Part shown: positions 10,557 through 64,000 of the stretch, in pieces
Position numbering within the stretch: the stretch's first letter is position 1
How the letters are laid out: the number at the start of each line of letters is the position of its first letter
NCBI GenBank assembly: GCA_963724765.1
Contig: CAVRVY010000003.1
Location: 64,001 to 128,000 of the forward strand
DNA: 64,000 nucleotides
From: an uncultured delta proteobacterium
GTDB taxonomy: Bacteria > Desulfobacterota > Binatia > Binatales > Binataceae
Reading direction: 5' to 3'
Program-made: the position numbers and the translations under genes
Notes under the pieces: model-generated
Databases searched by the model: none
What the model was told of the DNA's origin: nothing
What the model saw: only the letters and a program-made list of their open reading frames with translations

Positions 10557-10842
10557 TAAGGGACAGGGTGATAGAAACCGCGATCGCTCGAGATGCCTCG
10601 CTCGCGGCCGCCAGCGAGTCCTCGATGCTGAGAAATTCCGCGTGGCGTCTGCCAAATCCGCGCGCGTCCGGCAAACGCGATGGCGCTTTTACGACGACTC
10701 TGCAAAATGAATTGATGCCTTGCAAATCCAAACCTTCACAGAGTCCAAACGGGCCAAAACATCCCGATTGGCCTCGGGCTTTCCGCGGGCATAGTTCCTG
10801 CTCCATAAGTGCATGGAGATTTGCCAAACCAAACAAGCGCGT

Positions 10843-11142
10843 ATGAAGAGAATAGAAGCGGTAATCGTGCGCTCGGCTTTGGACGACTTTCACCGATGCG
10901 CCAGGCAGCTCGGAATCTTCGGATTCGATTTATCTGAGGAACAGACGAAACTCAGAGACTCCGATTGTACTTCCGACGGCACAACGAGGCTTAGAGTAGA
11001 TTTCGCGGTCCTCGATGAAGAGACTAAGCCCTCCATTCACGCCGTTCTCGAATCAGTCCATCCGGACAGCATCGCGATTTTCAAATTTGATCAGGATGCA
11101 CGGCCGGCAACGCCTACAGGGCGTCCTGCGATTCATCCCTAG
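10843..11142 (+). CDS. Divergent P-II-like protein
   Basis: MKRIEAVI start and RLRVDFAV resemble GlnB/K; T-loop Tyr and GDGKIF not present. Confidence 0.55.
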   Translation: MKRIEAVIVRSALDDFHRCARQLGIFGFDLSEEQTKLRDSDCTSDGTTRLRVDFAVLDEETKPSIHAVLESVHPDSIAIFKFDQDARPATPTGRPAIHP

Positions 11143-11347
11143 CTGTTGCCTTAGGCGAACGCCCGGCGAGCGCTGTCCGAACCACGACGGAATCGGTTGT
11201 GCTACCGAGAGAACTGTTGCGTACTGGTGCATTTAAGGAAGCATACTGTGTATCGATCCCGGGTGCGATGGAAAATCAGACTCCGAACTTGTCGGTTTCG
11301 CGGCGCGTGACTATCCTGCCCCGCAATGTTGGTAGAGCAAACCGCTG

Positions 11348-12685
11348 ATGATCGGTTCGCGCGAGATCGTTATCGTCTCGCTGCTGGGGCTCCTGACGAC
11401 GTCCTCGTCAATCTTCGGCGCTGCTCTCGGTCTGTATGTTCCACTCTCCAAGCGGATGCTGGCCTCGTTCTGGCCTTTGCCGCCGGCGCCCTCATCAGTG
11501 CGCTGACCATCGAATTGGCGTTCGAAGGTGCCCAGGAACTGCATCAGCAGGGTTTCGACGCCAATGCGGCATGGGGGTTCATTGCCAGCGGCTTCGCTCT
11601 CGGTTCCATCGTCTATTATTTCACCTCTTTGTTCCTCGACCAGAAGGGGGCAGCGATAAGCTACCCGACACGATTTCGCGAATATGCTCTGGGACGCAAG
11701 CAGAAGGATGCGAAGGAGACGATCCAACTGCTGTCGAAATGCGACCTTCTGCGCCATCTGCCGCCCGAAGAAGTCGAACGAATCCTTCCGTTCGTCCGCA
11801 CCCGCCACCTCGACGATGGTGAGATTCTCTTCCATGCGGGCGATGCAGGAGACGCGCTCTACATCGTGACACAGGGGCAAGGTCGACGTGTTGTCGGCCG
11901 CGGCCGGCGGGCAGCTCAATGGACATGTCACCGGAGAAAGGCTCGCGGAACTGGGCGAAGGACAGGCATTCGGGGAGATGGCCCTCCTCAGCGGAGAGCC
12001 ACGTACTGCCACGATTCAATCGGCCGCTCAAACGGACCTGTTGGAAATCGGCAAGGAAGACTTTGATCGCCTCGTTGCGAACAATCGGGAGTTGGCCACC
12101 GAGGTGGAGCGGCTCAGCCACGAGCGCGCGATCAGGAATCTCAGCTCCGGCGGCGCTAATCCTTCGCAGTGGGCCAAGGTTGCGGCCAGCAATCTGGAGG
12201 ATCTGAGCAGGAGTGAGGCGAAAAGGATCCTGGCCGAAGCCAGTCAAGGAGCAGGACTGGCAATTGTTCTCGGAAACATTCTGGATACGATTCCGGGATG
12301 CCTCGTGATCGGTGCGAAGTTCGTCGGGGTGGAGAGCTTGTCGATCACTCTCATAGTCGGGATGTTCGTGGGTGGGATCCCCGAGGCAGCGGCGAGTGCT
12401 TCGATGCTTAAGAGAGCTGGGTACAATACCTTCGCGATTTTTGCCCTCTGGTCGACGGTTCTTGTCGCCGGAGTTGCGGCAGCAGCGGCCGGGAAGATAT
12501 TCATCGGCTCCGGCTCGCACGTGGCGGTTTTCTTTCAAGCGGTAGCGGGGGACGCGGTGCTCGCCCTGGTTGCTCACGCAATGATTCCGGAATCGATCCA
12601 CGCGGGTGGATCCCTGATCGTGCTGCCGGCCGTCGCCGGCTTTCTCTTCGCTCTATGGCTCGTTCTCACGCAGTCGTTGGTGTGA
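11348..12685 (+). pseudogene. ZIP-like membrane protein with inserted cNMP-binding domain, two frameshifts
   Basis: MIGSREIVIVSLLG..., shift near 11465, VLAFAAGALIS...FHAGDAGDALYIV, shift near 11877, GQAFGEMALLSGEPRTAT (cNMP), GGIPEAAAS, HAMIPES. Confidence 0.8.
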
Positions 12686-12703
12686 ACTCTATTATTAGCA
12701 TTA

Positions 12704-13390
12704 ATGTGGCTCGCTGAGATTATGCAGCATTGTAGTGAATTGCGGACAGCACGGATGCCGCTCATATCGGCTAAGACTCGCACTCCTATGCTCCAACATC
12801 TTGCACAATTCGGGCGGTCCGTCGTGACACGCGTGTGGACCTGGGTTGGAGTACCAATCACGATCTGGGGCTTGTTGCCGTCTGATGTTCAGCTAAAGCT
12901 CACTGGTAATTATTGGCCGTCATCTATTGACAACAAACATGTGCTGTTCCTTGGCTTTACGCTGCTCACGTTCTCGTGTTTTCGCGCGTGGGATGCGAAA
13001 CGGAGGTTCGCTGAACAATCCGCAGTGTCTCCCCGTTTTGAATTACAAATCAACCGAATAGACGTCAGTTCGCTTCCATGTGGATGCGAACTTACCACCC
13101 ACATAACGATTCGTAATCGCGGCTCTGATAGTCAGGCTACCGACTGGCAATTGCGCGGCAGTGACAATAAGGGCATATCGCTTACGAGTGATGAAGCCAT
13201 ACGAGCGAAGTTCGAACCAATGGACGGGGATTTGACCGATCATTCGGTTCGACGGAGCCAAACGAGACGAGGAGTGGTTATTCTCATTGTTCAAGGAATC
13301 AGTGAAACGCAGGCAAGGCAAATCACCTATTGGTTTCTGGCTTGTCGAGATGGTCTGAACGTACGTCATGAGTCAGCCGCTCAATACTTA
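12704..13390 (+). CDS. Hypothetical membrane-anchored protein; ORF reads into the dapF scrap
   Basis: Lower-GC ORF with two hydrophobic segments; sequence character changes abruptly near 13400. Confidence 0.45.
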
Positions 13391-13399
13391 GGAGCTTTG

Positions 13400-13841
13400 C
13401 TTTGCACTTCGGCGGTCTCGATGGTCAATTCGCATTGCGTGGTGTTCGTCGACAACGAAGTCGTGTTCGCCCTGGAAGATTCCGAGTTCGCCCGCGTCGG
13501 GCGACAGTTCGAGCATCATCCGTTCTTCCCCCGGCGCGTCAACCCGGAGTTCATCCTGCCGTTTTCGCGCGACAGGCTGCGGATGCGGGTGTGGGAGCGG
13601 GCTCGGGTGAGACACCGGCCTGCGGCACGGGAGTCTGCGCCGCGCTGGTCACCGCGGTGCAGACCGGACGGGCCGAGCGACGGGCGACACTGGAATTGCG
13701 CGCGGCGGAAAGCTGAGGATCGAATAGCGTGAGCACGGCGCGAACGCAGCAAATCACGTGATGATGACCGGTGAAGCGGTCAAAGTGTTCAGCGGCGAAG
13801 TCGAGGTTGGCGACGGCGAACCGGTGCCGGTCGTCAAGTGA
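13400..13841 (+). pseudogene. dapF: Diaminopimelate epimerase 3' fragment, frameshifted
   Basis: SMVNSHCVVFV (SMGNPHC), FPRRVNPEF, RMRVWER/GSGETPACGTG, VMMTGEAVKVFSG, across frameshifts and a stop. Confidence 0.88.
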
Positions 13842-13858
13842 GCTTGGAGGGCCATCCT

Positions 13859-14731
13859 ATGGTCAACGGAGCACTGACGGCGATCGTAACTCCCTTTCGC
13901 GACGGCGAGGTCGACCAGCAAGCGCTGTGCGAGCTGGTCGAATTCCAGATCCAGGGCGGCGTCGACGGGCTGGTGCCGTGCGACTCGACCGGCGAGTCGG
14001 CCACGCTCACCCATTCCGAGCACGAGCAGGTGATCAAGATCGTCGTCCAGCAGGCGCGCCGGCGCGTGCCGGTCGTGGCCGGCACCGGCTCGAACTCGAC
14101 CGCCGAAGCGATCCGACGGACCGCCTCCGCACGCGAGGCCGGGGCCGACGGCGCACTACTGATCTCGCCCTACTATAACAAGCCCACCCAAGACGGCATT
14201 TTCAGACACTACAAAATGATCGCGGCGGCGGTCGACCTGCCGCTCATCGTCCACAACATCCCAGGGCGCACCAGCTCCAACATCGTGCCCGAGACCTTCG
14301 CCCGGCTGAGCGAGATCCGCAACATCGTCGCGATCAAGGAAGCCTCGGGCTCGATGGATCAGACCTCCGACATCCGCCGCCTGTGCGGCGACCGGCTGAC
14401 GATCCTTTCGGGCGATGATTCGCTCACCCTGCCGCTGATGGCGCTCGGGGCCAAGGGCGTGGTCGCAACCGTCAGCAACGTGATGCCGCGCGAGACGCAT
14501 GAGCTGGCGGCAGCGGCGCTGGCGGGGGACTACGCGCGGGCGCGCGAGCTGCACTATAAGCTGTTGCCGCTGGTGCGCGCGCTGTTCGTGGAGACCAATC
14601 CGATCCCGGTCAAGCAGGCGCTCGCCTTCATGGGCAAGTGCACGGCCGAGATGCGGATGCCGCTGGTGCAGATGTCGCCGAGCCCGGCTGAGAAGCTGCA
14701 CGCGGTGATGAAGGAGCTGCGCCTGATCTGA
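13859..14731 (+). CDS. dapA: 4-hydroxy-tetrahydrodipicolinate synthase, probably a decaying copy
   Basis: TAIVTPF, PYYNKP, IKEASG, ETNPIPVK; motif changes PCDSTGES and IVHNIPGRT. Confidence 0.9.
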   Translation: MVNGALTAIVTPFRDGEVDQQALCELVEFQIQGGVDGLVPCDSTGESATLTHSEHEQVIKIVVQQARRRVPVVAGTGSNSTAEAIRRTASAREAGADGALLISPYYNKPTQDGIFRHYKMIAAAVDLPLIVHNIPGRTSSNIVPETFARLSEIRNIVAIKEASGSMDQTSDIRRLCGDRLTILSGDDSLTLPLMALGAKGVVATVSNVMPRETHELAAAALAGDYARARELHYKLLPLVRALFVETNPIPVKQALAFMGKCTAEMRMPLVQMSPSPAEKLHAVMKELRLI

Positions 14732-14740
14732 CGCGACGGT

Positions 14741-14843
14741 CTACAGAAATACCTCGGGCGAAACGCGGAAGTACTCGGCCAGTCGCCTGATGTCGGTTTT
14801 GCTAAGCCCGCGCTTGCCGCTCAGGATCTCTGACGCAACGCTG
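14741..14843 (-). pseudogene. HigA-like antitoxin HTH C-terminal scrap
   Basis: Manual translation SVASEILSGKRGLSKTDIRRLAEYFRVSPEVFL*. Confidence 0.7.
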
Positions 14844-14845
14844 TG

Positions 14846-15008
14846 ACTTATTCCCGTGGCCCTGAGAGGAGTGACCTATCAACCCCTCGGAGCGGATGCG
14901 TTGCTGCGGAGAAACCTGCTCATTTGGGGCGTCGGTGGTGTCATTCTGCCGTTCGCAGGTATCAAGCTTATCGATGTAGTCATGGGCGCCATGCACCTCG
15001 TTGCCTAG
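14846..15008 (+). pseudogene. kdpB: Second kdpB, C-terminal scrap
   Basis: [47 protein letters not shown], paralogous to the end of kdpB at 3962. Confidence 0.85.
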
Positions 15009-15030
15009 CGCGAGAGTAGAAGGATAGGCG

Positions 15031-16006: not shown

Positions 16007-16057
16007 TCATTATATCGACAAGTCAACCGGCATTTCCATTTGAATCCGCGATTCAGA

Positions 16058-16227
16058 ATTGGCAGGTCGCGTACGCGGATTATTCCGTCCGCAGATGCGA
16101 TCCGATCAATTCTCTCTCGGCGGTGAACCAGTCGATCCAATCGTTGCCGTGGACGCTGCCGCGCGCCAAAAATAGTTCGTAGGCCCGCCGCTGAATCTGT
16201 TCGACAGTTCGCGAACCGTTAGCAACT
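16058..16227 (-). repeat. 5'-truncated inverted duplicate of the DUF2934 gene at 25475
   Basis: Reverse complement encodes NGSRTVEQIQRRAYELFLARGSVHGNDWIDWFTAERELIGSHLRTE*, near-identical to about 25572-25741. Confidence 0.9.
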
Positions 16228-16349
16228 AATACACCGAGTCGCGCCAACCGGAGTCGTTCTCCGGGTCCGTGAGTGATCGCTAATCACGCACGCGCACACG
16301 CGCGAATTTCGATCGATTCTCCGATTAGGCCAAAACCTGGCGGACTGAA

Positions 16350-16445
16350 TGGTGGAGCGAACTGAATTCGAACTGCCGGTACCGATTTCTAAACTGCCAG
16401 ACGACAGCGTCGTGTTATAATTTGCGACGCTGAGACGAGTTGCCC
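16350..16445 (-). repeat. 96-bp repeat ending in a tRNA-3'-like end (att-like), copy 1
   Basis: Reverse complement GGGCAACTCGTCTCAGCGTCGCAAATTATAACACGACGCTG...GGTACCGGCAGTTCGAATTCAGTTCGCTCCACCA. Confidence 0.9.
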
Positions 16446-16524
16446 CTGATCGTCCAGCGAGCAGGCAGCGACATTGCGGCGTCGGAGGGGCGGTGTATAT
16501 CGTTATCCCGAGGCGAACAAACCA

Positions 16525-17206: not shown

Positions 17207-17472
17207 GCAAGATCGAACCATCACCGTCCCGAACTTGCTCGCCCTCGGCGGCGAGCAGATCGGTTCGAAGTTTACGCACATGATGTATGTCGCTCATCTC
17301 TCCAGAGAATGCTGAAAACTGAAGACCCTCGGTACCGCCCATTACGCTGCTTCTTTCAGCGTAAAGAGGCGGACCAACGCATGCTTATGAAGGTTTGGGC
17401 GGAGACCCGAGGCCGGTTTGATCGCGCTCGAAGAGCCTGAACGCTTGCGGCATCATTACTGCGCGCCGCCCC

Positions 17473-18435
17473 TCAAGTGAAGAGCGAGCTCACCGACTCC
17501 TCATTATGAATGCGGCGGATCGCCTCCGCTATAAGGCTGGCCACCGACAGCACTTTGAGCGATCCCAGTTCCGCCTGCGCCTTGGCCCGCAGCGGGATGC
17601 TGTTGGTGGTGACCACTTCGCTCAGCCGCGACTGGTTGAGCCGCTCGCAGGCCGGGTCGGAAAGTATCGGATGGGTCGCGCAGGCGAGGACCTCGGTCGC
17701 CCCGGCGTTCATCACCACCTTGGCCGCCTCGGCAATCGTGCTGGCGGTGTCGATCATGTCGTCGACCAGCAGCGCAGAGGAATCGCGCACCTCGCCGACC
17801 AGCTGCATCTCGGCGACTTCGCTGGCGCGACGCGGGCGGCGCTTGTCGATAATCGCGAGATTGGCGTTGAGCCGCCGCGCAAAGGCGCGGGCCCGCTCCA
17901 CCCCGCCGGCGGCGGGCGAGACCACCGAGACGCGCCGGTTCTCCAGGCGCTTGCGCAGGTACTGGATCAGCACCGGCATCGCGTAGAGGTTGTCGACCGG
18001 GATGTTGAAGAAGCCCTGGATCTGGCCGGCGTGGAGGTCGACGGTGAGCACGCGCAGGGCGCCGGCGGTGGTGATGAGGTCGGCGACCAGCTTGGCGCTG
18101 ATCGGCACGCGCGGGGTGACCTTGCGGTCCTGGCGCGCGTACCCGAAGTAGGGCACCACGGCGGTGATGCGCTTGGCCGAGGCGCGCCTGAGCGCGTCCA
18201 TCAGCAGCAGCAGCTCCATCAGGTTGTCGTTGGGCGGCGTGCAGATCGACTGGAGCACGAAGCAATCCCCGCCGCGCACGTTCTCGCGCACTTCGACCAT
18301 CACTTCGCCGTCCGGGAAGCGGCCGACTTCCGCCTGGCCCAACCGCACGCCGAGATACTCGCAGACCTCGCGCGCCAGCGCCGGGTTGGAGTTGCCGGTG
18401 AAAATCTCCAGTTCGTCTTTCGCCCGTTCAGGCAT
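17473..18435 (-). CDS. prs: Ribose-phosphate pyrophosphokinase, possibly a decaying copy
   Basis: FPDGE, PYFGYARQDRK, DLHAGQIQGFF; motif changes VSPAAGG and DDMIDTAST. Confidence 0.92.
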   Translation of the reverse strand: MPERAKDELEIFTGNSNPALAREVCEYLGVRLGQAEVGRFPDGEVMVEVRENVRGGDCFVLQSICTPPNDNLMELLLLMDALRRASAKRITAVVPYFGYARQDRKVTPRVPISAKLVADLITTAGALRVLTVDLHAGQIQGFFNIPVDNLYAMPVLIQYLRKRLENRRVSVVSPAAGGVERARAFARRLNANLAIIDKRRPRRASEVAEMQLVGEVRDSSALLVDDMIDTASTIAEAAKVVMNAGATEVLACATHPILSDPACERLNQSRLSEVVTTNSIPLRAKAQAELGSLKVLSVASLIAEAIRRIHNEESVSSLFT

Positions 18436-18932
18436 CTCGGCCCCCTCGGCCAAGCCAAAGTCGCACTAACCACCATCTGCCCGGTACACGCCGACAGAAA
18501 CCCGTCGCTCTCGATGGGACCTCGGCAGGAAGCCGGGCTGATTTCTGTGCCACTGCTTCGGGTGCGGCAGCGACCACACGACCGCGGACAGTTGGCGCTC
18601 AAAGCGCCAACGTCCACCGCCGAAAGTCGAAATTGAGAGAATCCAGGGGAACGGCGCGGGTATCTTCCGGATGAGGATTTCTCTGGTGGACTTTGAACTC
18701 ACCAAGTACCATAGGCATCGATGGTCCGGAAGGTTTTGCACAACCGCTGCGTCCATTGCCCTGGTTTCTTCCGTGAAGGCGTGATTACCGACCATGTAAT
18801 CCCGCCTGTTTCAGCTCGACAGGCACAGCCAACTTCGCGAAGCCGGCAGCACCTGCCTGTGAGCCGTGCAACGTTCAGCTCGGACAGCGGATAAACTTGC
18901 GCATCGATTCTCTCCTTCAGCGCTTTACGCCG

Positions 18933-19544: not shown

Positions 19545-19655
19545 CTCCTCGTTTCGGGACTCAGCCGGTCACGCCGGCGTCCACGACCAACGTAATACCG
19601 GTGACGTAGCATCGCTTCGTCCGAAGTCAGAAAAGTCACTGCCGCTTCTGCCGCT

Positions 19656-20639: not shown

Positions 20640-21282
20640 TCGGCGCGGACCCGAGTGTCGGTACGCGATACCCTGTGCCCTCTAAAAACTTGATCCGCGC
20701 GGATTTATTGGTGATTTCGATCGCCTGGACGATAGCCTGCTTTCATGGCGATGGCGAACAGCGGGGCAGTCCTGATCGCGCGAAGCGAACTCCCAACCCT
20801 ACCGCGCTGCTGTTGGAAGCGATCGCCGTACTGCCGATCAACAGCCTAGAGCAAATTAACTCCCACATATCGACGCTGTTGAGAATCGACTTTCTCAAGG
20901 AGCTTAGGAATGCCGCTCTGAAGTCTTCAATATGGGCGCCGGTCGAATGACACTGGTTTTCCCTCTCCCATCGGCAATGATGCCGTCCAGGTTTACGGTG
21001 GGGCTAAACGGCTCTTCGAGTTACGCCACATCTATGCTCACGAGGTTCCCCACAAGTGCGATGCAGAAGATTAACAGCAGAGTCCGCTGCTTCAACCTGC
21101 CGGAGCAGAAATCGGTCAAGTGCGAAATAGCAGTAGGCATGCGATTCAGCGGAGCATGTCAAAGGAGCGGCGACTCCACGACGCGGCAATGACAATTCTC
21201 CGATCCTCTAATAAGTGTGAAGTTGCGCGATACGGTAATTTCGCTCATTTCTCCGGATGCTGCGGGAAATTGAAGGACTGAC

Positions 21283-21308
21283 TGGCGACGGGGGAGATTT
21301 GAACCCCC
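21283..21308 (-). repeat. tRNA-3'-like att remnant
   Basis: Reverse complement GGGGGTTCAAATCTCCCCCGTCGCCA, followed by GTCAGTC...GGAGAAATGAGCGAAAT as at the other junctions. Confidence 0.6.
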
Positions 21309-21568
21309 GAACGACCTTGTGTCGTCCCCAATAGTAAGATGCCCCCAGTTTGCAGCACGGTTTGGCGGTGGGCTATGGGTATGCTGACTTGGAGCGTCAA
21401 AACGGGAATTCCGGTCAGCAGGAGGGGTAGAACGATGCGCATAGAGTCAAAGGGAAATGGTTGTGCTCCGCAAAATTATTCGGTCGGCGGCCAAGGACAC
21501 GCATTGCGAAGGCTTTTGCGTCCGGTAGGGTCTGGGCCAGAACACCGGGCAATCGTGCCCTGGCTGTT

Positions 21569-22004: not shown

Positions 22005-22273
22005 CACTATTGAAAGCCGTCGCCCGGGCGCGGCAATGGTCTGAAGACCTGCTGATGGGCAGAGCAAAGTCAGTTGCAAAGATCGCTGAACGCGAAGGGG
22101 TCTCAGACCGCTACGTCAGACGACTAACGCGGCTGGCATTCCTGGCACCGGAGATTGTCGAGGCGATAGTTGCTGGTAACCAACCGCCCGAGCTCACCGC
22201 CGAGGCCTTGGCCGAACGGATCGATCTTCCTCTTCTTTGGACCGCGCAAGAACAAGCCGTGGGAATCGCATAG
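22005..22273 (+). pseudogene. Large serine recombinase C-terminal remnant
   Basis: KAVARARQW...IAEREGVSDRYVRRLTRLAFLAPEIVEAIVAGNQP...LPLLWTAQ; paralogous to 63639-64000. Confidence 0.85.
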
Positions 22274-22511
22274 TTCCTCTTAAGTTCGATCACTTCCGCA
22301 CCATCCTGGCCGAGCACGTCGGCGAATCGGATCCTGTCGTGCGTCGGGCGTGGATGGAACCGCCTCACTTGCCAACAGAGATTTTGGCCGCGTCTTGCGC
22401 GCGAACCAGCCAAAGGTGGTCTTCTCCGGTGCCGCCAAATCTGCAAATGACGCCGCAATCGCGCGCTATTTCGGCGGCTTGAAGGGAGTGTCCTCAGAGA
22501 TAAGGACTCGT

Positions 22512-22604
22512 TGGCGGACCGAAGTGAATTCGAACTGCCGGTACCGCTTTCTAAACTGCCTGACGACGTCATCATGTTAAGCTTTGCGACATCGAGACGA
22601 GTTG
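22512..22604 (-). repeat. tRNA-3'-like repeat, copy 2
   Basis: Reverse complement ends GGTACCGGCAGTTCGAATTCACTTCGGTCCGCCA; about 240 bp downstream of the recombinase stop. Confidence 0.9.
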
Positions 22605-22790
22605 TGAAGCGCTCCCACCCAGGACCGCATTTGTGACGCGCTGTAGGTTTGTTGTTGAAGCGAACGGTGCCAAAGTGGATTACCCTCAGCGGCAGAATCA
22701 GTCGCGGTGTTGCTCATGCCGCACGAACAAAACGCTTCCCTTGAACGTCGCGACAGTAACGCCAGACCGGCACGGAGTTCCGGACCATGA

Positions 22791-22886
22791 GGGCAACTCA
22801 TCTCAGCGTCGCAAATTATAACACGACGCTGTCGTCTGACAGTTTAGAAAGCGGTACCGGCAGTTCGAATTCACTTCGCTCCGCCA
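22791..22886 (+). repeat. tRNA-3'-like repeat, copy 3 (inverted relative to copy 2)
   Basis: GGGCAACTCATCTCAGCGTCGCAAATTATAACACGACGCTG...CAGTTCGAATTCACTTCGCTCCGCCA. Confidence 0.9.
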
Positions 22887-22936
22887 ACGAGTCCTCGTCT
22901 CTAGCCGAGCGTGACCGTATGCCTCGAGATCGAATG

Positions 22937-25474: not shown

Positions 25475-25720
25475 ATGGCTACGGACAAAACTACGAAAGG
25501 CAGACGGGCGCGCAAGCCCGTGATGGACGGAGCGGTTGCCCGTCCGGTGGCGCACAACGGTACGCCAGTGGCTGTTGCGAACGGTTCGCGAACTGTCGAA
25601 CAGATTCAGCGGCGGGCCTACGAACTATTTTTGGCGCGCGGCGGCGTCCACGGCAACAACTGGATCGACTGGTTCACCGCCGAGAGAGAATTGATCGGAT
25701 CGCATCTGCGGACGGAATAA
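25475..25720 (+). CDS. DUF2934-family protein
   Basis: EQIQRRAYELFLARGGVHG...DWFTAEREL. Confidence 0.85.
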   Translation: MATDKTTKGRRARKPVMDGAVARPVAHNGTPVAVANGSRTVEQIQRRAYELFLARGGVHGNNWIDWFTAERELIGSHLRTE

Positions 25721-25789
25721 TTCGCGTAGGCGACTTGCAATAGCCGCAGGCTCCGCGCCGTGCAGAACCGATAGACAGGCTTCAGGGCC

Positions 25790-27334: not shown

Positions 27335-27365
27335 CCGGGGGGTTCGAATCCCCCTCGCTCCGCCA
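27335..27365 (+). repeat. tRNA(Ser-like) 3' end fragment, att site
   Basis: CCGGGGGGTTCGAATCCCCCTCGCTCCGCCA: T-arm plus acceptor strand with CCA and no 5' half; the following 50 bp match 10608-10665. Confidence 0.8.
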
Positions 27366-28005
27366 GCGAGTCCTCGATGTTGAGAAAATCCGCCTAACGT
27401 CTGCCAAATCCGCGCGTACTTCACCTGACAGGTCCGTGCATCGAATTGTTCACGCCGTCCTGGGATCAACGGCCGCATCCCATTCTGCATTATACTTCAA
27501 GAACCTGGGCGCACCCTGAACGTCGCAAATCACGAACGGATCGCGGATAAGCGACACGGTACGGAATCCTGTCTCGAAACCAAGGCATGACACGGCCAAC
27601 AGTCCGCCAAGCACGTTGACTTAGTATTTCGTGGGCCAAGTTTACCCCCCGAGCGCTCTGACCGCCCCTGGAATTAGCGAGAAGATTCCTGCCGGCCGTC
27701 TGCTAGATCGCAGACATGAAGCGCTGCCGCGCCGCTTCGTTCGTATTGGTTCTCTGCGAGACAGTTCCGTTTTGACAGGAAGTAGTGTTTTCTGACAGGT
27801 TGCGATCAAGGCTTCACGTTGACTCCCCCCTCGGCACGAAGTGTCAACACTGGAGTGAAAGTACATCAGCGCGCCAGAGCAAAAGTCCATCATTTGGATA
27901 AGCCGATGGCAGGTAGGTTGACGTCTGGCAGGGGGAGCGCGAGGGGGATCACCCCCTCGCTACTGTGTCGAAAAGATCTAGCTTTGTGGGTTGGAGTTAG
28001 TGGTG

Positions 28006-42396: not shown

Positions 42397-42524
42397 ACCA
42401 GCGTTTTAGACTGTAGAGAACGGCGGTGGTGGTATCCTCGGCGAGCGCGTACGCCAGTTTGATACTGCTATTTGAGGGGGTCGGTCTGATCAGGGCGCAC
42501 ACGTCACTCAATCGAGGCCGCACG

Positions 42525-45602: not shown

Positions 45603-46643
45603 GTGAAGGTTAAAACACTCGGCATCGACCTGGCAAAGGAGACGTTCGGACTGCACGGAGTAGACGCCCTTGGGCGAATGGTGGTGCACCAGCGGGTCAC
45701 GCGCAAGCACCTGCGGGGTTTTCTGGTGAAGCTGGAGCCGTGCCTGGTGGGGCTGGAAGCGTGCGGCTCGGCGCACTATTGGGCGCGAGAGATCGAGAAG
45801 CTGGGTCACACGGTTAAGCTGATGAGCCCGCAGTTCGTCATCCCCTACCGCAAGGGCAATAAGAATGACCCCAACGACGCCGAGGCGATCTGCGAGGCGG
45901 TAACCAGGCCGTCGATGCGCTTCGTACCGATCAAGCACGAAGAGCAACAGGATTTACAGGCGCTCCATCGGGTGCGCGAGCAGTTAGTCAAGAACCGCAC
46001 CGCACTGGCTAATCAGATTAGAGGGCTATTGCGTGAGCGCGGAGTAGTAGTGGCACAAGCGATCGCGCGGCTGCGCGCTGCCTTGCCGCTGATCCTGGAG
46101 GACCAGAGCAATCGCCTGAGTGGGCTGCTGCGCGAGCTTTTGGGCGAGATGGCCGAGCGGCTGCGGATGCTCGACGATCGTCTGCGGCAGTACGACCAGC
46201 GGATCGCGCACGTTTGCCAGCAGGACGAACGGTGCCGGCGGCTGGTTAAAGTCGAAGGCGTCGGTCCGCTGGTGGCGACGGCTGTGGTCGCGGCGATAGG
46301 TAATGCGCGGCAGTTCACCAACGGCCGCGAGCTCAGCGCCTGGCTGGGGCTGGTGCCGCGCGAGCACTCAAGCGGCCAGCGCACGATGTTGCTCGGCATC
46401 AGCAAGCGCGGCAATCGTTACCTGCGCACGCTGCTCATCCACGGGGCACGAGCTGCCACCCGCGTGGCTGAGCGCAAACGCGACCCGCGTAGTATCTGGC
46501 TGAGCCGGCTTAAGCTCAGAGGCGGGCCCAACGTGGCGGCGGTAGCCCTGGCCAACAAGAACGCGCGAGTGATGTGGGCACTGCTCGCTCGCGGCGACTC
46601 CTATCGGGTGCGGCCAGCGATGGACCGAGCGGCCGCGGCCTGA
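45603..46643 (+). CDS. IS110-family DEDD recombinase/transposase
   Basis: GIDLAK, EAC, KNDPNDAEAI, GLVPREHSSG, SKRGNRYLR. Confidence 0.97.
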   Translation: MKVKTLGIDLAKETFGLHGVDALGRMVVHQRVTRKHLRGFLVKLEPCLVGLEACGSAHYWAREIEKLGHTVKLMSPQFVIPYRKGNKNDPNDAEAICEAVTRPSMRFVPIKHEEQQDLQALHRVREQLVKNRTALANQIRGLLRERGVVVAQAIARLRAALPLILEDQSNRLSGLLRELLGEMAERLRMLDDRLRQYDQRIAHVCQQDERCRRLVKVEGVGPLVATAVVAAIGNARQFTNGRELSAWLGLVPREHSSGQRTMLLGISKRGNRYLRTLLIHGARAATRVAERKRDPRSIWLSRLKLRGGPNVAAVALANKNARVMWALLARGDSYRVRPAMDRAAAA

Positions 46644-58543: not shown

Positions 58544-60097
58544 TCACCATCCTCCTGGCCCCCATCGTCGGCTCTTGATCAGTCTGCCAAGGCCGCCGTA
58601 TTCCCCACGCGGGCCATCGACATCCTGTTCGTCCCGGGACGACGGCCGACGTCGGTCCGACCGTACCGGTGTGTACGAGAACTCGCGGCGATTTGCCGCA
58701 AGGAAGGTGAACGCGCCACACGCCGCGTCGACCTGATCGTCGTGCGCATATTCTCGTTCGTCGGGACTGAACTGCTCGCACTCATCGAGGAACGCCTCGT
58801 TCCACGCGCCGCGCAGGATTTTGACGTTGCTCGCCTCCGCGGCCGCACGAAACGCCTGCGAGCGCTCGAACTTCGAGCCCCTGACCGGGTCGGCTTTAAT
58901 CGGATAGCCGAGCAGTACACCCCGGCGCATTGAGTCAATCCAAAGGGCGCTCCCGCTTCCAGGCTCCTGCTGCAGGACTATCGGAATGGTACGGGTGTCC
59001 TGACCAGCGATGTTGGCGATAAAGGTCTCGACCTCGTGCGGCGTCGCCTGAGCCCGCGCCACGTGCAGAATGTAGCCCATCCCATTACGGGCAATGCCGT
59101 ATTTGACGCCGACGGTAAAATCGCTGGTTTTCTTCTTCTGATAGGCTGTGTCCCAGTACCGAACTAGTGTCAGCTCCGCCGGGGCGTGATCGATGACCTC
59201 GAACCACTCACGCCGGAGCACGCCACGCGAAGAACGCGCCTCCCAGTCGCCTTTGAGGATGCGGGCGCGGGTTACGGGGTCCAGGTTAAGGAGAGACTTC
59301 TCGTAGTCTTCGCGATTGATATAGGGATTCTCGCTGAGCCGGGCGGGCACGAATATACGGTCGCCGGCAGGAGCTCTTAGGCGTTCAACGAATCTCCTTT
59401 TGACCCAATCATGACCCACGTTCCCGGGATTCGAAGCCGCACGCATGCGCAGTGGAATATGTGCGGCTTCTACGTGCTCAGTTTTCTTGCGCACGACGCG
59501 AAAGCGCTGACGTTCGAGCTCTATGCACTCGGAGTAATCTTTCTTACGCTGCTGGTGAACCCTATCGCGGTGACCTCGGGATAGCATTTCAATCTTACAA
59601 GCCGGACATGCAGGAGCGCGCAAACGCGCGAATAGATCGAGATAAACCTTCTCCGAGAATTGGGTTAGTTCGTCGACGCCGATAAAATGAAATTCAGCTG
59701 AAGCGTAGCGATCGATGTCACGTGATCCCGCCAAATAGCCGAAGGTGAGCGTCGCGCCGCTTGCGAACTGCCACTGGTTCTTGGACTCATTCCAGTGCAC
59801 GTCCTTACGTCCGCGGAGCCAGCCATGCGCTCGATCGAGCAGTGCATTAGGCAGGGTCAGATCGGCAACGTGCCGTCGAATGATAAGCGCGTGGTAGCCG
59901 GGTATGTCGGCGTATTGGAGCGCAGACATCAACAAAGCATCAGATTTGCCACCACCTCCGGCACCACCATAGAAGGCTTCGAGGCAGTCCAACAGCAGGA
60001 ACGCGGCCTGATGCGACGTTGGCACATGCGGTATAAATGTATTTAAGCGCGCCTCAAACGGATCGAGTTCGAGCGCAGGATTGCAACTATCCTTCAT
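58544..60097 (-). CDS. Phage terminase large subunit (Terminase_6-like)
   Basis: YGGAGGGGKS Walker A, IGVDELTQF Walker B, ASNPG, YWDTA, HDDQVDA nuclease motif. Confidence 0.93.
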   Translation of the reverse strand: MKDSCNPALELDPFEARLNTFIPHVPTSHQAAFLLLDCLEAFYGGAGGGGKSDALLMSALQYADIPGYHALIIRRHVADLTLPNALLDRAHGWLRGRKDVHWNESKNQWQFASGATLTFGYLAGSRDIDRYASAEFHFIGVDELTQFSEKVYLDLFARLRAPACPACKIEMLSRGHRDRVHQQRKKDYSECIELERQRFRVVRKKTEHVEAAHIPLRMRAASNPGNVGHDWVKRRFVERLRAPAGDRIFVPARLSENPYINREDYEKSLLNLDPVTRARILKGDWEARSSRGVLRREWFEVIDHAPAELTLVRYWDTAYQKKKTSDFTVGVKYGIARNGMGYILHVARAQATPHEVETFIANIAGQDTRTIPIVLQQEPGSGSALWIDSMRRGVLLGYPIKADPVRGSKFERSQAFRAAAEASNVKILRGAWNEAFLDECEQFSPDEREYAHDDQVDAACGAFTFLAANRREFSYTPVRSDRRRPSSRDEQDVDGPRGEYGGLGRLIKSRRWGPGGW

Positions 60098-60162
60098 TAC
60101 GGTTTTTCGCTCTCTTCAGCCATCTGGCTTTTCGTTCGCTCCATTTATGTAAAGGTGGATCA

Positions 60163-60639
60163 TCAATCTTTCTTATTCGGTGGCGTATCGGAGTCTGATT
60201 CGTCGCTGCCTGCGGCGTCAGGAGTGAGGTAGCCAGCCCGCTGCAGAATTGTCGCGATCTCGAATTTGCGCTGATGCTTTTCCTCCGCCGACGGCGGCGG
60301 CGGAAGTGGTGAACGTTCGGCTACGGCTGAGCGCGAAGCTTGGTGTTCTTCGATTCTCGGAATCTGATGCGCCAGCAACAACTGCATGGCGCGATGGTCA
60401 CCCTGCGCCGCCTTGTTAACCAGCTGTTTAAGGGTTGCTTCCAGCTTGGTTAATGATCTCCGGACGCCGTTCTCCGAGACGATGACACGCTCCCGAAGGG
60501 CCTCGTCCAAGAGCGTCGATGCGTTTCGCGAGCCGCGTGGGCGACCTTTGATGTTTCCAGAGTGGCCCTTCTTGAATTGCGTATGTCGCGGCGGCTTGCC
60601 GTAGCCTATGTCGTAATCTCTGCCTTCTCTTGCTCGCAT
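60163..60639 (-). CDS. DUF5681 protein (putative small-terminase-like)
   Basis: IGYGKPPRHTQFKKGHSGNIKGRPRGSRN, NKAAQGD. Confidence 0.88.
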   Translation of the reverse strand: MRAREGRDYDIGYGKPPRHTQFKKGHSGNIKGRPRGSRNASTLLDEALRERVIVSENGVRRSLTKLEATLKQLVNKAAQGDHRAMQLLLAHQIPRIEEHQASRSAVAERSPLPPPPSAEEKHQRKFEIATILQRAGYLTPDAAGSDESDSDTPPNKKD

Positions 60640-62018
60640 CCCTTTTCCTCCATCTCGGCTTGGACTTCGTTGAATGATCGCTCGGACGAGACATGACGGG
60701 CGTTATCGCGAGTAAACGCCTGCCATCGACGGATGATGGTGTCGACGTAAAGAGGATCTATTTCGAGTCCGTAACAGCGGCGCCCGGTGCGCTCTGCTGC
60801 GATGATTGTCGTGCCGCTGCCGAGAAATCCATCGAGCACGACATCCCGTCGTGAAGTGCAGTCTATGATCGCGTCTGCAACCAAGGCGACGGGTTTCACT
60901 GTTGGATGGAGCGCGAGCAGCCGGCCCTCATCCCCTGAACGCGAGAATGAATTCACCCCGGGATAATTCCAGACATTGCTCCGGTTGCGGCCATACTGCC
61001 CTAGCTGAACATTGTTCCGATGAGATCCGCGGCCGTGTTTGAATACGAATACCAACTCATGTCGGCTGCGATACAGCGATCCCATGCCTGCGTTATCTTT
61101 TGACCAGACGCAGAGGTTCTTTAGCTCCGTATAGACTTCGCGGCCAGCCGCCAACAGCTCAGCCATGTGCCTCCAGTCCATACATATGAAATGGAGCGCG
61201 CCCTCGACGCTATGCCGGGCGTGCAGTGAACAGGTTGTGGTGAGAAATGTCCTGAACTCGGCTTCGCTCATCTCACCAGAAGCCATCGCGAAATCGCGAT
61301 GTCGGACGGAGCCGAGACCGCTAACATTCCCATCGATTCGGACATTGTATGGTGGGTCGGTAAACACCATCTCTGCCTGCTCGGTCTGCATCAGCGCCGC
61401 ATAAGCGATTGGGTAGCGTGCATCCCCGCAATACACCCGATGCTCGCCCAACTGCCAAAGATCACCGGTACGCGTCACGGCCGGACCCAACGGGAGCGCC
61501 GACAGGTCATCGGCGTCATCCTTGTTCTCGTGCGTGGAGGAAGTTAGACCCTCGATTCGCATATCGATTTCGCCCATGTCGAAACCGATTGTCTCGAGGT
61601 CGAAATCGAGGTTCTGTACCGACAATTCCTTTAGTTGCTCAGCTAGCAATCGGTCATCCCAAACCGAGTTTTCCGTGAGTCGATTGTCGGCAATCATGAA
61701 TGCCCGCGCTTGAGCCTCGCTCAGATGGTTGAGGCAAATGGTGGGCACTTCGGTCCGGCCAAGCAGCTGGCAAGCCACGATACGGCCGTGGCCTGCGATA
61801 ACCTTTCCTTTTGCATCCACCAGCACCGGCACGTTGAAGCCGAAGGTCTCGATGCTGCGCGCGATCTGGCGGATCTGCCTGGGGCTATGCGCGCGCGGGT
61901 TCTGGGGATCGAGCTTGAGCTCGGAAATCGGACGATAGGCTACCTGAACCCGCAGGCCGGGCTTATCGAGCCCTCTCGTGAAATGTCGAGCAGCTGATTT
62001 TGTCATAAGCAGTTTCAT
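60606..62018 (-). CDS. ParB N-terminal domain fused to an N6/N4 DNA methyltransferase
   Basis: NPRAHS..QI..IARSI..FGF..P..IAGHGR (ParB); FTDPPYN; HPTVKP; LDGFLGSGTT. Start uncertain (62006/62018). Confidence 0.93.
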   Translation of the reverse strand: MKLLMTKSAARHFTRGLDKPGLRVQVAYRPISELKLDPQNPRAHSPRQIRQIARSIETFGFNVPVLVDAKGKVIAGHGRIVACQLLGRTEVPTICLNHLSEAQARAFMIADNRLTENSVWDDRLLAEQLKELSVQNLDFDLETIGFDMGEIDMRIEGLTSSTHENKDDADDLSALPLGPAVTRTGDLWQLGEHRVYCGDARYPIAYAALMQTEQAEMVFTDPPYNVRIDGNVSGLGSVRHRDFAMASGEMSEAEFRTFLTTTCSLHARHSVEGALHFICMDWRHMAELLAAGREVYTELKNLCVWSKDNAGMGSLYRSRHELVFVFKHGRGSHRNNVQLGQYGRNRSNVWNYPGVNSFSRSGDEGRLLALHPTVKPVALVADAIIDCTSRRDVVLDGFLGSGTTIIAAERTGRRCYGLEIDPLYVDTIIRRWQAFTRDNARHVSSERSFNEVQAEMEEKGCEQEKAEITT

Positions 62019-62096
62019 AGCTCCCAAAATCTCGGTCGAGAGAAGTAATTGCTCGAGTCGTACGTGCTCCGGTACGTGTTCCAATACATTATCGAT

Positions 62097-62126
62097 TTGA
62101 CGCTAGGTTCTATAATTCTCTACAAT
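62097..62126 (+). promoter_or_regulatory. Putative sigma70 promoter
   Basis: TTGACG-N18-TACAAT, 9 nt upstream of ATG 62136; tandem GTACGTG(C/T)TCC at about 62060-62082. Confidence 0.5.
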
Positions 62127-62135
62127 GATTTGATT

Positions 62136-63014
62136 ATGACAACACTCGAACGATGGGACTGGGTCAATCTCGGCGATAACGAAGGACGTGTGGACCGCCC
62201 GTCAGCGGGGCTTGCTTGGTCCACCCCTTCAGCCGCCGAGCTTGACGGCGAGTGGTTGCTTTTTCTCTATCGGATGCGCGTTCTTCGGCGTGGCTTACGT
62301 GCGTTTCAGGTTCGCACGGTGAAGGCGAGCGCTGGGCTGCTCACCGAATTCATCCAGCTTGAAGAGGCGCCTGCGGAGCGTATTCTCGCTTATGCTCACC
62401 GGCACGGTCCGTTTGGCTTCTGCCAGCATGGCGACCCCAGCCACCGTGTTCTTTCCGAGGGCTGCCCTGCGGCGGTCGCCACGACTGGCGCCGGCCAAGT
62501 CGCCGTCCGTGAAGCTCTCCAGTGGTGGCGCAACCTCGCGGGTCACGCCCGCGCGCTGCTCAACGCAGCGGCTCAACTGTTCAAGGGCCGAGTCGATGAC
62601 ATAACTCTCGTGCGGCTCAATCCTGGACTGCTTCTTAGGCCGATGCGGGTGCTCAGGGCTGCGCGGCGCGACCCGGCGCCCTTCGTCGCCTATGGTATGG
62701 AACTCTGGCTGCGCTTCTTTCAGGTGCGGCCGCGCGCCACCTACAATCCGCGGCGTAAGCGGTTCGAGATGAGAATTAGCGGTTCGTCGGCGCTGGCGGG
62801 CGCGCTGGCACTGCAAATCATGCTCGCGCTGACGCGCTCAGCCGGCATTGCGGTATGCTCGGGCTGCGGTAGGGTATTCCCGCCTTCCCGGCGACCCAAC
62901 CCCAATAGGAACACCTACTGCGACGCCTGTGGAATCAGAGCCGCCTGGCGCGAAGCGCAGGCTCGCCGACGTGAGAGAGAAAGCAATAAGTCGCAAGGCC
63001 GAAGGAATGCATAG
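62136..63014 (+). CDS. Hypothetical protein with a C-terminal CGNR-like Zn finger and basic tail
   Basis: CSGCGRVF...YCDAC..AAWREAQARRRER; divergent from the methylase. Confidence 0.75.
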   Translation: MTTLERWDWVNLGDNEGRVDRPSAGLAWSTPSAAELDGEWLLFLYRMRVLRRGLRAFQVRTVKASAGLLTEFIQLEEAPAERILAYAHRHGPFGFCQHGDPSHRVLSEGCPAAVATTGAGQVAVREALQWWRNLAGHARALLNAAAQLFKGRVDDITLVRLNPGLLLRPMRVLRAARRDPAPFVAYGMELWLRFFQVRPRATYNPRRKRFEMRISGSSALAGALALQIMLALTRSAGIAVCSGCGRVFPPSRRPNPNRNTYCDACGIRAAWREAQARRRERESNKSQGRRNA

Positions 63015-63178
63015 ACATGCGGCGCCGATCTCGCACGCCTAGATCGTCGATTGGCAGAACGGACAGCTGACAAACCGCGAATCGTCGTGGCGAGGTATCG
63101 ATAATCATTTTCGAGACAACACTTCCGCGTCCCGCTCGCTAGCTCATCTTGGTTGCGGCAGGGCTCCCAAAGGCTCGC

Positions 63179-63361
63179 TCCCTGATCCGAAGAGGATCAG
63201 GGAATCTGAATTCCCTGATCCACGATCGAAATTCCCTGTTCCGATCTCTAGGGAATTCTCCAGAAAAGCTTAATGCCCACGCGAGGTTTTCACGCCGCTG
63301 GACGCCGAAATAGCCCTGAAAAGACGAAATTCCCTGTATTTACCTTGTTGATCAGGGAATT
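63179..63361. repeat. Cluster of about 8 direct/inverted AATTCCCTG motifs
   Basis: (AAT)TCCCTG at 63179, 63209, 63230, 63328; (C)AGGGAAT at 63198, 63250, 63353; variant at 63309. Confidence 0.85.
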
Positions 63362-63368
63362 GCTCGAT

Positions 63369-63403
63369 GGAGACTGGTTCGCATCAGACTGCATCATCCG
63401 CCA
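63369..63403 (+). repeat. tRNA-3'-like att junction
   Basis: GGAGACTGGTTCGCATCAGACTGCATCATCCGCCA, then CACAGTC...GGAGAAG; about 235 bp from the recombinase stop. Confidence 0.7.
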
Positions 63404-63638
63404 CACAGTCTGGCATGCTTCCCTACATTATGGAGAAGCGATGAAATCGGCGCGTGGGGCGCGATTCACGCGCGGCCGTGGACGCGGAGAATGCCAACGG
63501 CAGGGGCTGAGCGTGAAAATCGCTTAGAATTCTCTGTTCGCGATTTTGGCATGTCCATCTGCGAACCGGCCGACATTTTGCGGAGAAGCGTTCTCGGGAA
63601 GAACGCTGCCTGACGCAAGCAACTACGCCCGCGTGAGT

Positions 63639-64000
63639 CTATCGGGATTCCAGAGCTTGCTGCTGCGCACTCCAGAGCGGAGGGAGTTCGATTCTCTGGG
63701 TCATCGCTAGAGTGCTGAGGTCTGCGGGCTGCCGGCCTTCGACGATCGCCTCGACAATCCTGGGCGCCAGGAACGCCAGCCGCATCACGCGCCGCACGTG
63801 ACGGGCCGTAAGATGTTCTCGCCTGGCTATCTCGCCGATCGACCGCGCCCGACCCGCCAACAGATCGTTGGACCATCGATACGCACGGGCGGTCGCGTCG
63901 AGCAGCGGTAGATCGATGCGTGCTAAGGATGCGGCGTCACCATCAATGATCAGCCGCATCTCAACGCCGCGCCGCTTCATCCGCATCGGGACGAATCGAC
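63639..64000 (-). CDS. Large serine recombinase, C-terminal part (runs off window)
   Basis: RFVPMRMKRRGVEMRLII...IARREH...VRRVMRLAFLAPRIVEAIVEGRQP...LP.LW.AQ. Confidence 0.88.
   Translation of the reverse strand, partial: RFVPMRMKRRGVEMRLIIDGDAASLARIDLPLLDATARAYRWSNDLLAGRARSIGEIARREHLTARHVRRVMRLAFLAPRIVEAIVEGRQPADLSTLAMTQRIELPPLWSAQQQALESR

Follow-up and report, generated by a model that had tools for sequence, protein, structure and literature searches.

The window analysed here is a 64-kb stretch of DNA, positions 64001-128000 of contig C3, from the 5.4-Mb, four-contig genome of an uncultured delta proteobacterium (G000; contigs C1-C4; 62% G+C). It carries seven junctions, J1 to J7, each composed of a short core that reads like the 3' end of a tRNA gene, a left half of variable kind and a right arm. 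The gene of a large serine recombinase (LSR) enters the window at its right edge and converges on J7 (Table 1). The anatomy of these junctions, and their relation to the LSR and to the DUF2924 gene that accompanies it, are the subject of this analysis.

A preliminary description of the window had listed seven sites imitating a tRNA 3' end, each followed by a related arm, and all seven are present. The motif CRCCANNNAGTC matches at 10609(+), 16343-16354(-), 21276-21287(-), 22505-22516(-), 22882(+), 27361(+) and 63399(+), that is 7 times against 1.00 expected, and none of 100 shuffles reached 7 (shuffle maximum, 3). A core-plus-arm profile, built from the copies of the genome with junctions counted at E≤0.01, returned the identical seven sites and none additional. 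The arms are indeed related, as evident from 91% identity between 10608-10664 and 27360-27416, and from the 82-92% likeness of the upstream parts of the copies at 16.3 kb and 22.5/22.8 kb. The arm of J5 breaks off early, about 16 nt past CCA, which makes J5 a candidate far-end (attR-type) junction. The description had also placed two arms about 240 bp from a recombinase stop codon. The LSR stop at 63639 lies 236 nt past the CCA at 63403 (J7), and the 87-aa frame ending at 22273, 58% identical to LSR residues 476-559 (E 3e-31), ends 239 nt from the core of J4. Absence of a full tRNA was borne out as well: neither ARAGORN nor Rfam finds a tRNA gene in the 64-kb window, whose sole Rfam match at gathering score is a group II intron domain. 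The self-complementary T-arm is kept solely in the copy at 27342 (J6), in agreement with the remark that only the site near 27335 looks like a true tRNA end.

Table 1. Junctions and associated features of the window
Feature	Position	Strand	Description
J1 junction	10590..10730	+	core 10609-10620; left half degenerate; arm truncated, J6-like only to 10664
J2 junction	16230..16461	-	mimic A left arm 16355-16461 (~95 conserved nt); core 16343-16354; arm to ~16230
Structured arm element, orphan (model R1)	18591..18708	-	63.4 bits, E 1.5e-10; without adjoining core or recombinase
J3 junction	21180..21330	-	T-arm-like left half; core 21276-21287; arm divergent; without recombinase
LSR remnant	22010..22273	+	last 87 aa, convergent on J4
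J4 junction	22274..22623	-	mimic A 22517-22623; core 22505-22516; arm with structured element 22336-22451 (38.3 bits)
J5 junction	22775..22902	+	mimic A, opposed head to head to the J4 copy; core 22882-22893
J6 junction	27336..27416	+	tRNA 3' fragment, T-arm intact; core 27361-27372; arm truncated
Phage-type genes	58544..62084	-	large terminase, DUF5681, ParB-N/DNA methylase; left-arm side of J7
J7 junction	63300..63638	+	type B left arm, CAGACTG ... CAGTCTG symmetry around ATCCGCCA; core 63399-63410; arm complete
Structured arm element of J7 (model R1)	63462..63578	+	61.2 bits; outer GTGGAC/GTCCAT, inner GGAGA/TCTCT
LSR gene, 3' part	63639..64000	-	intact 562-aa gene continuing past the window; DUF2924 gene precedes it there

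Genome-wide, the same profile reveals 38 junctions, and their left halves fall into several kinds, all of which keep GTTCRAAT-like letters and CYCCRCCA at tRNA spacing. One kind is a real tRNA-Ser. Another, termed mimic A, is a sharply bounded unit of ~95 nt, with a final ~45 nt similar to tRNA-Ser(gct) in its variable arm, T-loop and acceptor end; no convincing covariation was obtained over the ~95 nt of its five copies. Type B reads GGTTCGCATCAGACTG ... ATCCGCCA, often with GTCAACC repeats or a hairpin before it, and two further types occur at the ends of minimal units of 2.6-4.3 kb. Just upstream of the type B left arms at C1:575874, C1:610421, C4:1563273 and at loci L030, L046 and L176, 3-4 GTCAACC(G/A)CCGC repeats are accompanied by a GTCAACCGGTTGAC palindrome, and these repeats have the appearance of iterons or operators belonging to a single type of element. 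The earlier proposal of an attachment (att) site imitating a tRNA end stands with respect to the likeness of the left halves to T-loop and acceptor end. Not visible from the window itself was the nature of the targets, which are genuine tRNA-Ser genes; each of the four in the genome (tga, gct, cga and gga) carries an arm and is occupied.

Ten genes of the genome encode both Resolvase and Recombinase domains. A convergent LSR gene or remnant accompanies 15 of the 38 junctions, of which 9 have a near-full convergent LSR within 4.5 kb and 6 more have C-terminal remnants. The nearest LSR match ends 261-352 nt from the core start at 7 of those 9 junctions; at 2 the LSR is 2.7-2.8 kb away, and at a third it is split by an open reading frame (ORF). 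A gene for a FUSC-family membrane protein of 683 aa (C3:241108-243159; L022 5109-7160) lies between the arm of tRNA-Ser(gga) and most of its LSR, which appears split since a short recombinase piece stays close to the arm.

The linkage was further examined with a profile of six LSRs of this genome, which retrieved 80 loci from contigs of one genome per species, spanning Binatia, Alpha-, Beta- and Gammaproteobacteria, Myxococcota and Acidobacteriota. Downstream tRNA genes were counted where the sequence continues for at least 450 nt beyond the LSR, which is so at 70 loci. A convergent tRNA lies within 1 kb of the LSR stop at 40 of the 70 (27 Ser, 7 Gln, 3 Ala, 1 Phe, 1 Arg and 1 Lys), mostly 172-375 nt from the end of the LSR match, and a tRNA-less junction occurs at 6 more. 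Cultured strains among the loci with a convergent tRNA are Pelagibacterium lacus XYN52 (L072; tRNA-Ser gga, 204 nt), Erythrobacter sp. EC-HK427 (L083; tRNA-Ser gga), alpha proteobacterium BAL199 (L085; tRNA-Ser cga) and Oceanibacterium hippocampi CECT 7691 (L068; tRNA-Lys). With ~50-60 tRNA genes in 4-5 Mb, such adjacency by chance is well under 1%. Linkage of junctions to recombinase genes, on which the preliminary description had staked its proposal, is thus present at 15 of the 38 genome junctions and at 40 of the 70 loci. The partner gene is constant: at 75 of 76 loci the LSR is preceded by a DUF2924 gene whose end lies no more than 250 nt upstream, and in the unit of the window itself the two frames overlap.

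The closest homologues of the LSR (86-91% identity) come from metagenome-assembled genomes assigned to Candidatus Binatus, Binataceae and 'delta proteobacterium', where they adjoin tRNA-Ser genes (gct, gga and cga) and are accompanied by the arm type seen here. In a quick tree, LSRs linked to Ala, Gln and Phe/Arg form small groups, and the LSR of the window nests among copies at tRNA-Ser gct, gga and cga. An arm sub-family with CCACCA cores is found behind tRNA-Ala(cgc) (C3:908395, L031, L033, L034 and L077), and its recombinases group together in the same tree. Among viral contigs, which are short and may be incomplete, a full tRNA follows the LSR in only 5 of 53 (those with at least 450 nt past the LSR). 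Five viral contigs match the arm model, in 4 of them just past the LSR, and 3 of these four arms are joined to a look-alike left arm and 1 to a real tRNA-Ser. This arrangement fits a reading of the joined sequence as the phage-side site, attP.

The boundary of the unit is apparent from a comparison of two copies. From position 63397 the window is 99.4% identical over 3214 bp to a stretch of C2 next to tRNA-Ser(cga), and the shared block comprises arm, LSR and DUF2924. Identity begins at TCCGCCA, and the left flanks are unrelated, being a type B arm in the window and tRNA-Ser(cga) on C2; the arm is therefore taken as the integrase-proximal end of the element. If instead core and arm were an independent small repeat (a tRNA-linked non-coding RNA gene, or a unit like a miniature inverted-repeat transposable element) serving as a target on or beside which LSR elements land, arm and LSR would not be expected to move as one such block with its boundary at the core. 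Nor would orientation and spacing to the LSR stop be fixed across phyla, several 'orphan' junctions keep C-terminal LSR remnants as decay predicts, and arm-less tRNA-Ser genes exist in relatives. An independent repeat would account for the excess of 38 arms over 10 recombinase genes, for the structured element at 18591-18708 that stands without a core, and for the first ~55 nt of the arm, which can differ though distal arm and LSR are alike (C1:674593 versus C4:1583118). On balance this explanation is considered improbable.

The likely position of strand exchange was sought in the letters of the junctions. The start of identity between the window and C2 copies would place it within TCCGCCA or immediately past it. 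Type B sites carry CAGACTG and CAGTCTG symmetrically about ATC|CGCC, and this symmetry points the crossover to the last bases of the acceptor stem. Among near-identical arms, the two bases after CCA vary and their neighbours are constant; these two bases could be the central dinucleotide. We infer from the sequences a crossover within ~9 bp that comprise the discriminator base, CCA and the two bases after it.

Stacking in tandem, the second part of the earlier proposal, is seen on C1 and in relatives and does not by itself describe the window, a rearranged stack with junctions facing both ways. On C1, four junctions of the same orientation extend from tRNA-Ser(gct), at 674593, 665754, 663143 and 661206. 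The first unit (8.8 kb) contains intact DUF2924 and LSR genes and cargo including an amidohydrolase and a DUF6745 protein, the second (2.6 kb) has only DUF2924 and LSR, both intact, and the two distal units are decayed. The further a unit lies from the tRNA, the more decayed it is, as would fit elements having entered repeatedly at the tRNA-proximal site. Two to three junctions of the same orientation occur in five other genomes (L026, L028, L029, L037 and L057). At tRNA-Ser(cga) in the family sample, the arm is full at 11 of 17 loci (one of the 11 in an unpublished genome) and not full at 6. Even where the arm is not full, in G012 and G067, the letters are CCA-NNN-AGTC. The native flank may thus already resemble the start of the arm, which would make occupied sites reusable. 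Regeneration of the target may occur, and the elements may be active at the present day.

Candidates for empty sites were examined in relatives. The tRNA-Ser(gct) genes of G004, G006 and G014 share a downstream sequence that is not an arm and lacks a DNA counterpart in this genome, and they were rejected as empty alleles. Directly after the tRNA-Ser(gct) of G004 begins a gene for a tyrosine integrase (Phage_integrase and Arm-DNA-bind_2), so that this site is occupied by another element and is not empty. In this genus two integrase classes accordingly use one target, tRNA-Ser(gct). The best candidate at tRNA-Ser(cga), that of G012, was also rejected: G005, G013 and G001 have the nearest homologue of the gene following it on other contigs, and here that homologue is on C4, with no junction beside it.

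The tyrosine integrase of G004, together with the same downstream sequence in G006 and G014, raises the question whether the junctions are debris of tyrosine-integrase islands in tRNA-Ser genes, with the serine recombinases as mere passengers. The left half at L028 and L051 is a tRNA-Ser(gct) fragment starting from the anticodon loop, as such debris would be, and the junction at C4:1722451 is followed by an ORF that by eye resembles the N-terminus of a tyrosine integrase. Passengers would not, however, explain a convergent tRNA at a fixed short distance in 40 of 70 LSR loci; no tyrosine integrase was seen at the LSR-linked junctions examined, and most look-alikes match a tRNA only in the T-loop and the last ~9 nt. 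Debris of this sort accounts for some left halves and not for the family, for which it is very improbable.

The explanation considered likely overall is that the sites are att-type junctions of integrative elements moved by DUF2924 and LSR, which stack and then erode; the preliminary description is thereby supported in its main lines. Several observations weigh against this explanation. The 23 of 38 junctions without a recombinase trace within 4.5 kb leave room for an independent life of the core-plus-arm unit. The J4 and J5 look-alike arms stand head to head, 189 nt apart, and simple tandem insertion gives neither such an arrangement nor mixed orientation. The two bases after CCA differ between the ends of the first C1 unit, which argues against their being the crossover, or against a simple history of that unit. 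Canonical serine integrases are not known to target attL, and re-use of an occupied site is for this reason an assumption for the LSR family. The genome-wide comparison called for in the preliminary description yielded the 38 junctions and, among the relatives examined, no clean pair of occupied and empty alleles. No recombination product was found in Logan contigs of public runs, which are short and have joints with sides of 21-24 nt. Runs X1, X2 and X5, searched with the C1 array, contain joints that link the second unit, at its core (L016 5755), to the interior of the tRNA (14634/14637), and the letters inserted at the X1 joint read like another tRNA-Ser. At most, these joints show a similar arm behind a real tRNA-Ser in other organisms.

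The arm itself follows one plan across phyla. Starting 80-105 nt past CCA, a variable stretch of 5-8 nt is followed by C(C/G)(G/A)GAGA and 38-41 variable nt; the second half consists of TCTC(T/C), ~16 nt with the consensus ttcGcnAtTTnGGcgG and the complement of the first variable stretch. RNAalifold of 26 copies gives an element of ~118 nt with two helices, in which 93.6% of cells pair against 71.9% in shuffles (0/500 reach this value) and the covariation score is 0.557 against 0.172 in shuffles and ≤0.163 with slid partners. Two points detract from the pairing. The alignment of 26 copies had been chosen by a filter requiring some complementarity, and the pairing was therefore recounted on 44 arms selected only by adjacency to LSR and tRNA and aligned by sequence alone. 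In this set, 67.4% of outer-helix cells pair against 48.8% (standard deviation 2.7) in shuffles (0/500), slid partners giving 33-44%. Secondly, a crude register-free permutation test of the outer helix is only modestly significant (18/2000).

Covariance model R1 of the element finds 22 copies in the genome, 18 of them beside a junction on the same strand, and matches 50 times in the 80 LSR loci. The class was sampled with 101 genomes, and copies occur in 7, all in the family of the window. A real tRNA-Ser lies ~60 nt upstream of 10 among 25 matches in other genomes (one match being from an unpublished genome), a core stands at a fixed 52-53 nt in 20, and a convergent LSR or remnant follows 53-147 nt downstream in 14. 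Rfam 15 gives no match at E≤10 for 63300-63700, and at gathering score in seven other loci it returns tRNAs only and no family for the arm element. Near the recombinases of phage AcaML1 and phage WO, the best R1 match in the stretches checked has an E of 1.3.

The element is favoured as an RNA read in the tRNA direction by three features: the inner helix closes with G.U in 12, with G-C in 9 and with A-U in 3 of the 26 copies; G.U pairs exceed A.C pairs, 39 to 18; and the two strands fold unequally, the J7 arm reaching -101.3 kcal/mol (z -3.21) in the tRNA-sense (+) direction and -83.4 kcal/mol (z -1.36) on the - strand. Judged from sequence, the arm element is probably such an RNA, antisense to the 3' end of the recombinase gene. 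The same letters could instead represent sites in double-stranded DNA, i.e. GGAGA/TCTCC inverted repeats bound by DUF2924 or by the C-terminal helical domain of the LSR, like res or the arm sites of lambda attP. Such sites would suit the ~4 occurrences of GGAGA/TCTCC per arm, including the TTCTCCGGAGAA palindrome near +30, the conservation of the arms over more than 200 bp, far beyond a half-site of ~25 bp, and the conservation of the extra helical domain (residues 473-560) in 39 LSR homologues. Unlike protein sites, the outer helix keeps complementarity while its letters vary (GC/CG/UA/AU in the same columns), and the excess of G.U over A.C and the unequal folding of the strands also argue for RNA; DNA sites are thus regarded as an unlikely origin of the element. 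It may be noted that the ~4 GGAGA/TCTCC occurrences carry the same letters as the inner helix, and that the near-perfect palindrome at ~+25 to +40 past CCA (for example at C1:178526, C1:284567 and C3:33451) carries them too.

Two other roles for the arm were tried and rejected. As a guide or bridge RNA, the longest complement to its own att averages 5.61 nt against 5.22 nt to att at other tRNA types (31 arms), and the other three comparisons of guide complementarity on these arms are equally flat. As the source of a small protein, the arm lacks a constant frame: what short frames follow the second GGAGA vary from copy to copy, and their ATG is not conserved. A scan of J7 for promoter and terminator gave one weak match each, near shuffle expectation.

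The recombinase belongs to the large serine recombinases by both Pfam and predicted fold. Pfam assigns Resolvase (PF00239, E 2.2e-38) to residues 12-164 and Recombinase (PF07508, E 5.7e-16) to residues 186-280, and DUF2924 (E 8.3e-46) to the product of the upstream gene. R16 and S18 are invariant in 39 homologues; the equivalents in Bxb1 are R8 and S10 (PMC12884075), and by analogy S18 would be the nucleophile. The predicted structure has a predicted local distance difference test score (pLDDT) of 77.8 and a predicted template modelling score (pTM) of 0.36, and Foldseek aligns it best with the integrases of Bxb1, SPbeta and PhiC31 at full length (~500-640 columns; E 1e-17 to 1e-12). The model suggests a beta-ribbon at 308-326 and helices at 345-407, at a pTM of only 0.36. 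No Pfam Zn-ribbon match was obtained for the LSR, and no Cys pairs are invariant in the 39 homologues. The helical domain named above forms part of an extra C-terminal beta-plus-helical region.

The surroundings of the junctions suggest an eroded island. Left of ~10.5 kb lie ordinary genes (sigma-54 activator, porin, kdpABC, DUF1646 protein and Usp protein). The part from J1 rightwards is a mosaic with transposases of the IS21 (twice), IS3, IS5, IS110 and IS630 types and Tad pilus genes, and the phage packaging block stands directly left of J7. The arm of J2 is followed by a small DUF2934 ORF (16080-16247, 55 aa) in place of a recombinase, and an IS21 copy begins downstream of J6 at 27842. At J1, the right flank matches relatives G004 and G005 from 10673-10690 onward, shortly after its truncated arm stops (10664), and the match of the left flank stops at 10029; in G005 the two flanks are 16 kb apart and in opposite orientation, which places J1 at a rearrangement breakpoint. 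The J1-J7 orientations are +, -, -, -, +, +, +, and the mimic A copies of J2 and J5 are 92% complementary, 6.3 kb apart. Since the junctions face both ways, the window is a rearranged and not a simple stack, and inversions between inverted sites, deletions and traffic of insertion sequences (IS) are needed besides tandem insertion. It is a decayed, IS-ridden stack in which one LSR is intact (at the right edge), another survives as a remnant of 87 aa and five junctions are orphans.

Further features were noted in the window. The group II intron domain V/VI match (10486-10556, +; 48.8 bits, gathering score 40) stops ~35 nt before the degenerate left half of J1, and the intron may have removed the left arm. 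An inverted repeat of 165 nt (16062-16226 and 25574-25738; 96% complementary) has one copy, 16062-16226, directly after the J2 arm, overlapping the DUF2934 ORF. Dihydrodipicolinate synthase (13412-14733) and phosphoribosyl pyrophosphate synthetase (17468-18463) have counterparts at C3:1094974 (87% identity) and C3:1151975 (90%), respectively, so that the island carries duplicates of housekeeping genes. The IS110-family transposase (DEDD_Tnp_IS110 and Transposase_20; 45603-46643, +) is unrelated to the junctions. Two long frames, 38081-41164 (-, 1027 aa) and 42426-44315 (+, 629 aa), have no Pfam match at E≤1e-4, and the former has a third-position G+C of 0.54, below that of its neighbours.

A mechanism can be proposed for these elements. 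The two-gene module of DUF2924 and LSR would join the element by recombination to a tRNA gene at its 3' end, here tRNA-Ser of any isoacceptor and in sister clades Ala, Gln, Phe, Arg or Lys. The element would supply everything past the crossover, and the arm (NNNAGTC ...) would be its integrase-proximal end, P', on which the LSR gene converges from ~240-330 bp away. The left half of a junction would then be (a) the tRNA itself (attL), a kind not seen in the window, (b) the far end, P, of the element next to it, with its GTTCRAAT ... CYCCRCCA look-alike at tRNA spacing, or (c) part of a tRNA that some other element has displaced. As the proximal parts are alike, new copies may enter beside residents and build stacks, which IS elements, deletions and inversions would erode. 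The weakest step is the proposed read-through from the tRNA promoter, which would make the arm RNA only in the integrated state and so damp or insulate expression of the recombinase. An antisense or insulating RNA that ties recombinase expression to integration in this way is the favoured guess at its role and is rather doubtful. That the arm element represents a new class of structured RNA placed behind a host tRNA, a sensor of the integration state that is antisense to the DUF2924-recombinase operon and sets directionality or silences the integrase, is unlikely; if true, it would add an RNA layer to a system thought to need only protein and ~50 bp of DNA.

Large serine integrases are valued in genome engineering for their short sites and independence of cofactors. 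A widespread clade that homes to tRNA 3' ends, which are universally conserved, would offer natural landing sites in nearly every bacterium, and would correct the rule that ties tRNA targeting to tyrosine integrases. The coupled DUF2924, the long arms and the covarying element suggest extra layers of control, giving a function to seek in DUF2924 and a candidate new RNA motif. For annotation, such elements would account for the tRNA-less "tRNA ends" that pile up in islands of these soil bacteria.

Like the systems of Bxb1, PhiC31, SPbeta, A118/LI and TP901-1, the present one combines catalytic and Recombinase domains, an integrase gene beside att and phage genes near one junction, and the predicted full-length fold of the window LSR matches the solved Bxb1, SPbeta and PhiC31 complexes. 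Known phage-type LSRs use protein-coding or intergenic targets and att sites of ~40-50 bp without accessory DNA. The present system differs in its tRNA 3'-end target, in arms conserved over ~95 nt (left) and >200 nt (right), in the coupled upstream DUF2924 and in the extra C-terminal region. In SCCmec, Ccr large serine recombinases insert at the 3' end of rlmH, and the repeated att lets cassettes pile up; the target rlmH, the ccrA/ccrB pair or ccrC in place of DUF2924 and LSR, and the host phylum are different. The bridge RNA of IS110 is likewise a structured non-coding element at the end of a recombinase element, next to the recombination site, but the enzyme family is another one and the arm element here has no complementarity to its own att beyond that to the att of others.

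The recombinases of Wolbachia phage WO and Acidithiobacillus phage AcaML1 are the nearest annotated phage homologues (36% identity over 98% and 48% over 72%, respectively), and in a WO-like region a DUF2924 gene is described just upstream of the recombinase (PMC10299305). They differ in having no arm-model match in the stretches checked and no tRNA link in the record annotations. With the tRNA/tmRNA (transfer-messenger RNA) islands of tyrosine integrases catalogued by Islander, the system shares insertion at a tRNA, a gene kept whole, tRNA-like fragments at the ends and stacks. The intact tRNA at the element end that marks such islands is absent from the window and present for sister copies at all four tRNA-Ser genes. 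The islands differ in carrying a tyrosine and not a serine integrase, and the look-alike here lacks a long identical block. The Islander paper takes it as a working rule that tRNA targeting belongs to tyrosine integrases. Paracoccus phage vB_PamS_Pami6, with a serine recombinase and a predicted site in tRNA-Met, is a single predicted case of a serine recombinase at a tRNA; that study identified none for its other 15 serine-recombinase prophages (PMC6536676). The tycheposon preprint counts 27 of 937 elements with a large serine recombinase and, in the portion cited, does not state their sites. Full-text literature yielded no clade of tRNA-targeting serine integrases besides the Paracoccus prediction, although TIGER (NAR 48:4052) or supplements could list cases. 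In comparison with all these systems, the present one stands out in that an enzyme of a known class goes with targets of an unusual one, with a partner gene that is fixed, with arms conserved over long stretches and with a folded element absent from Rfam.

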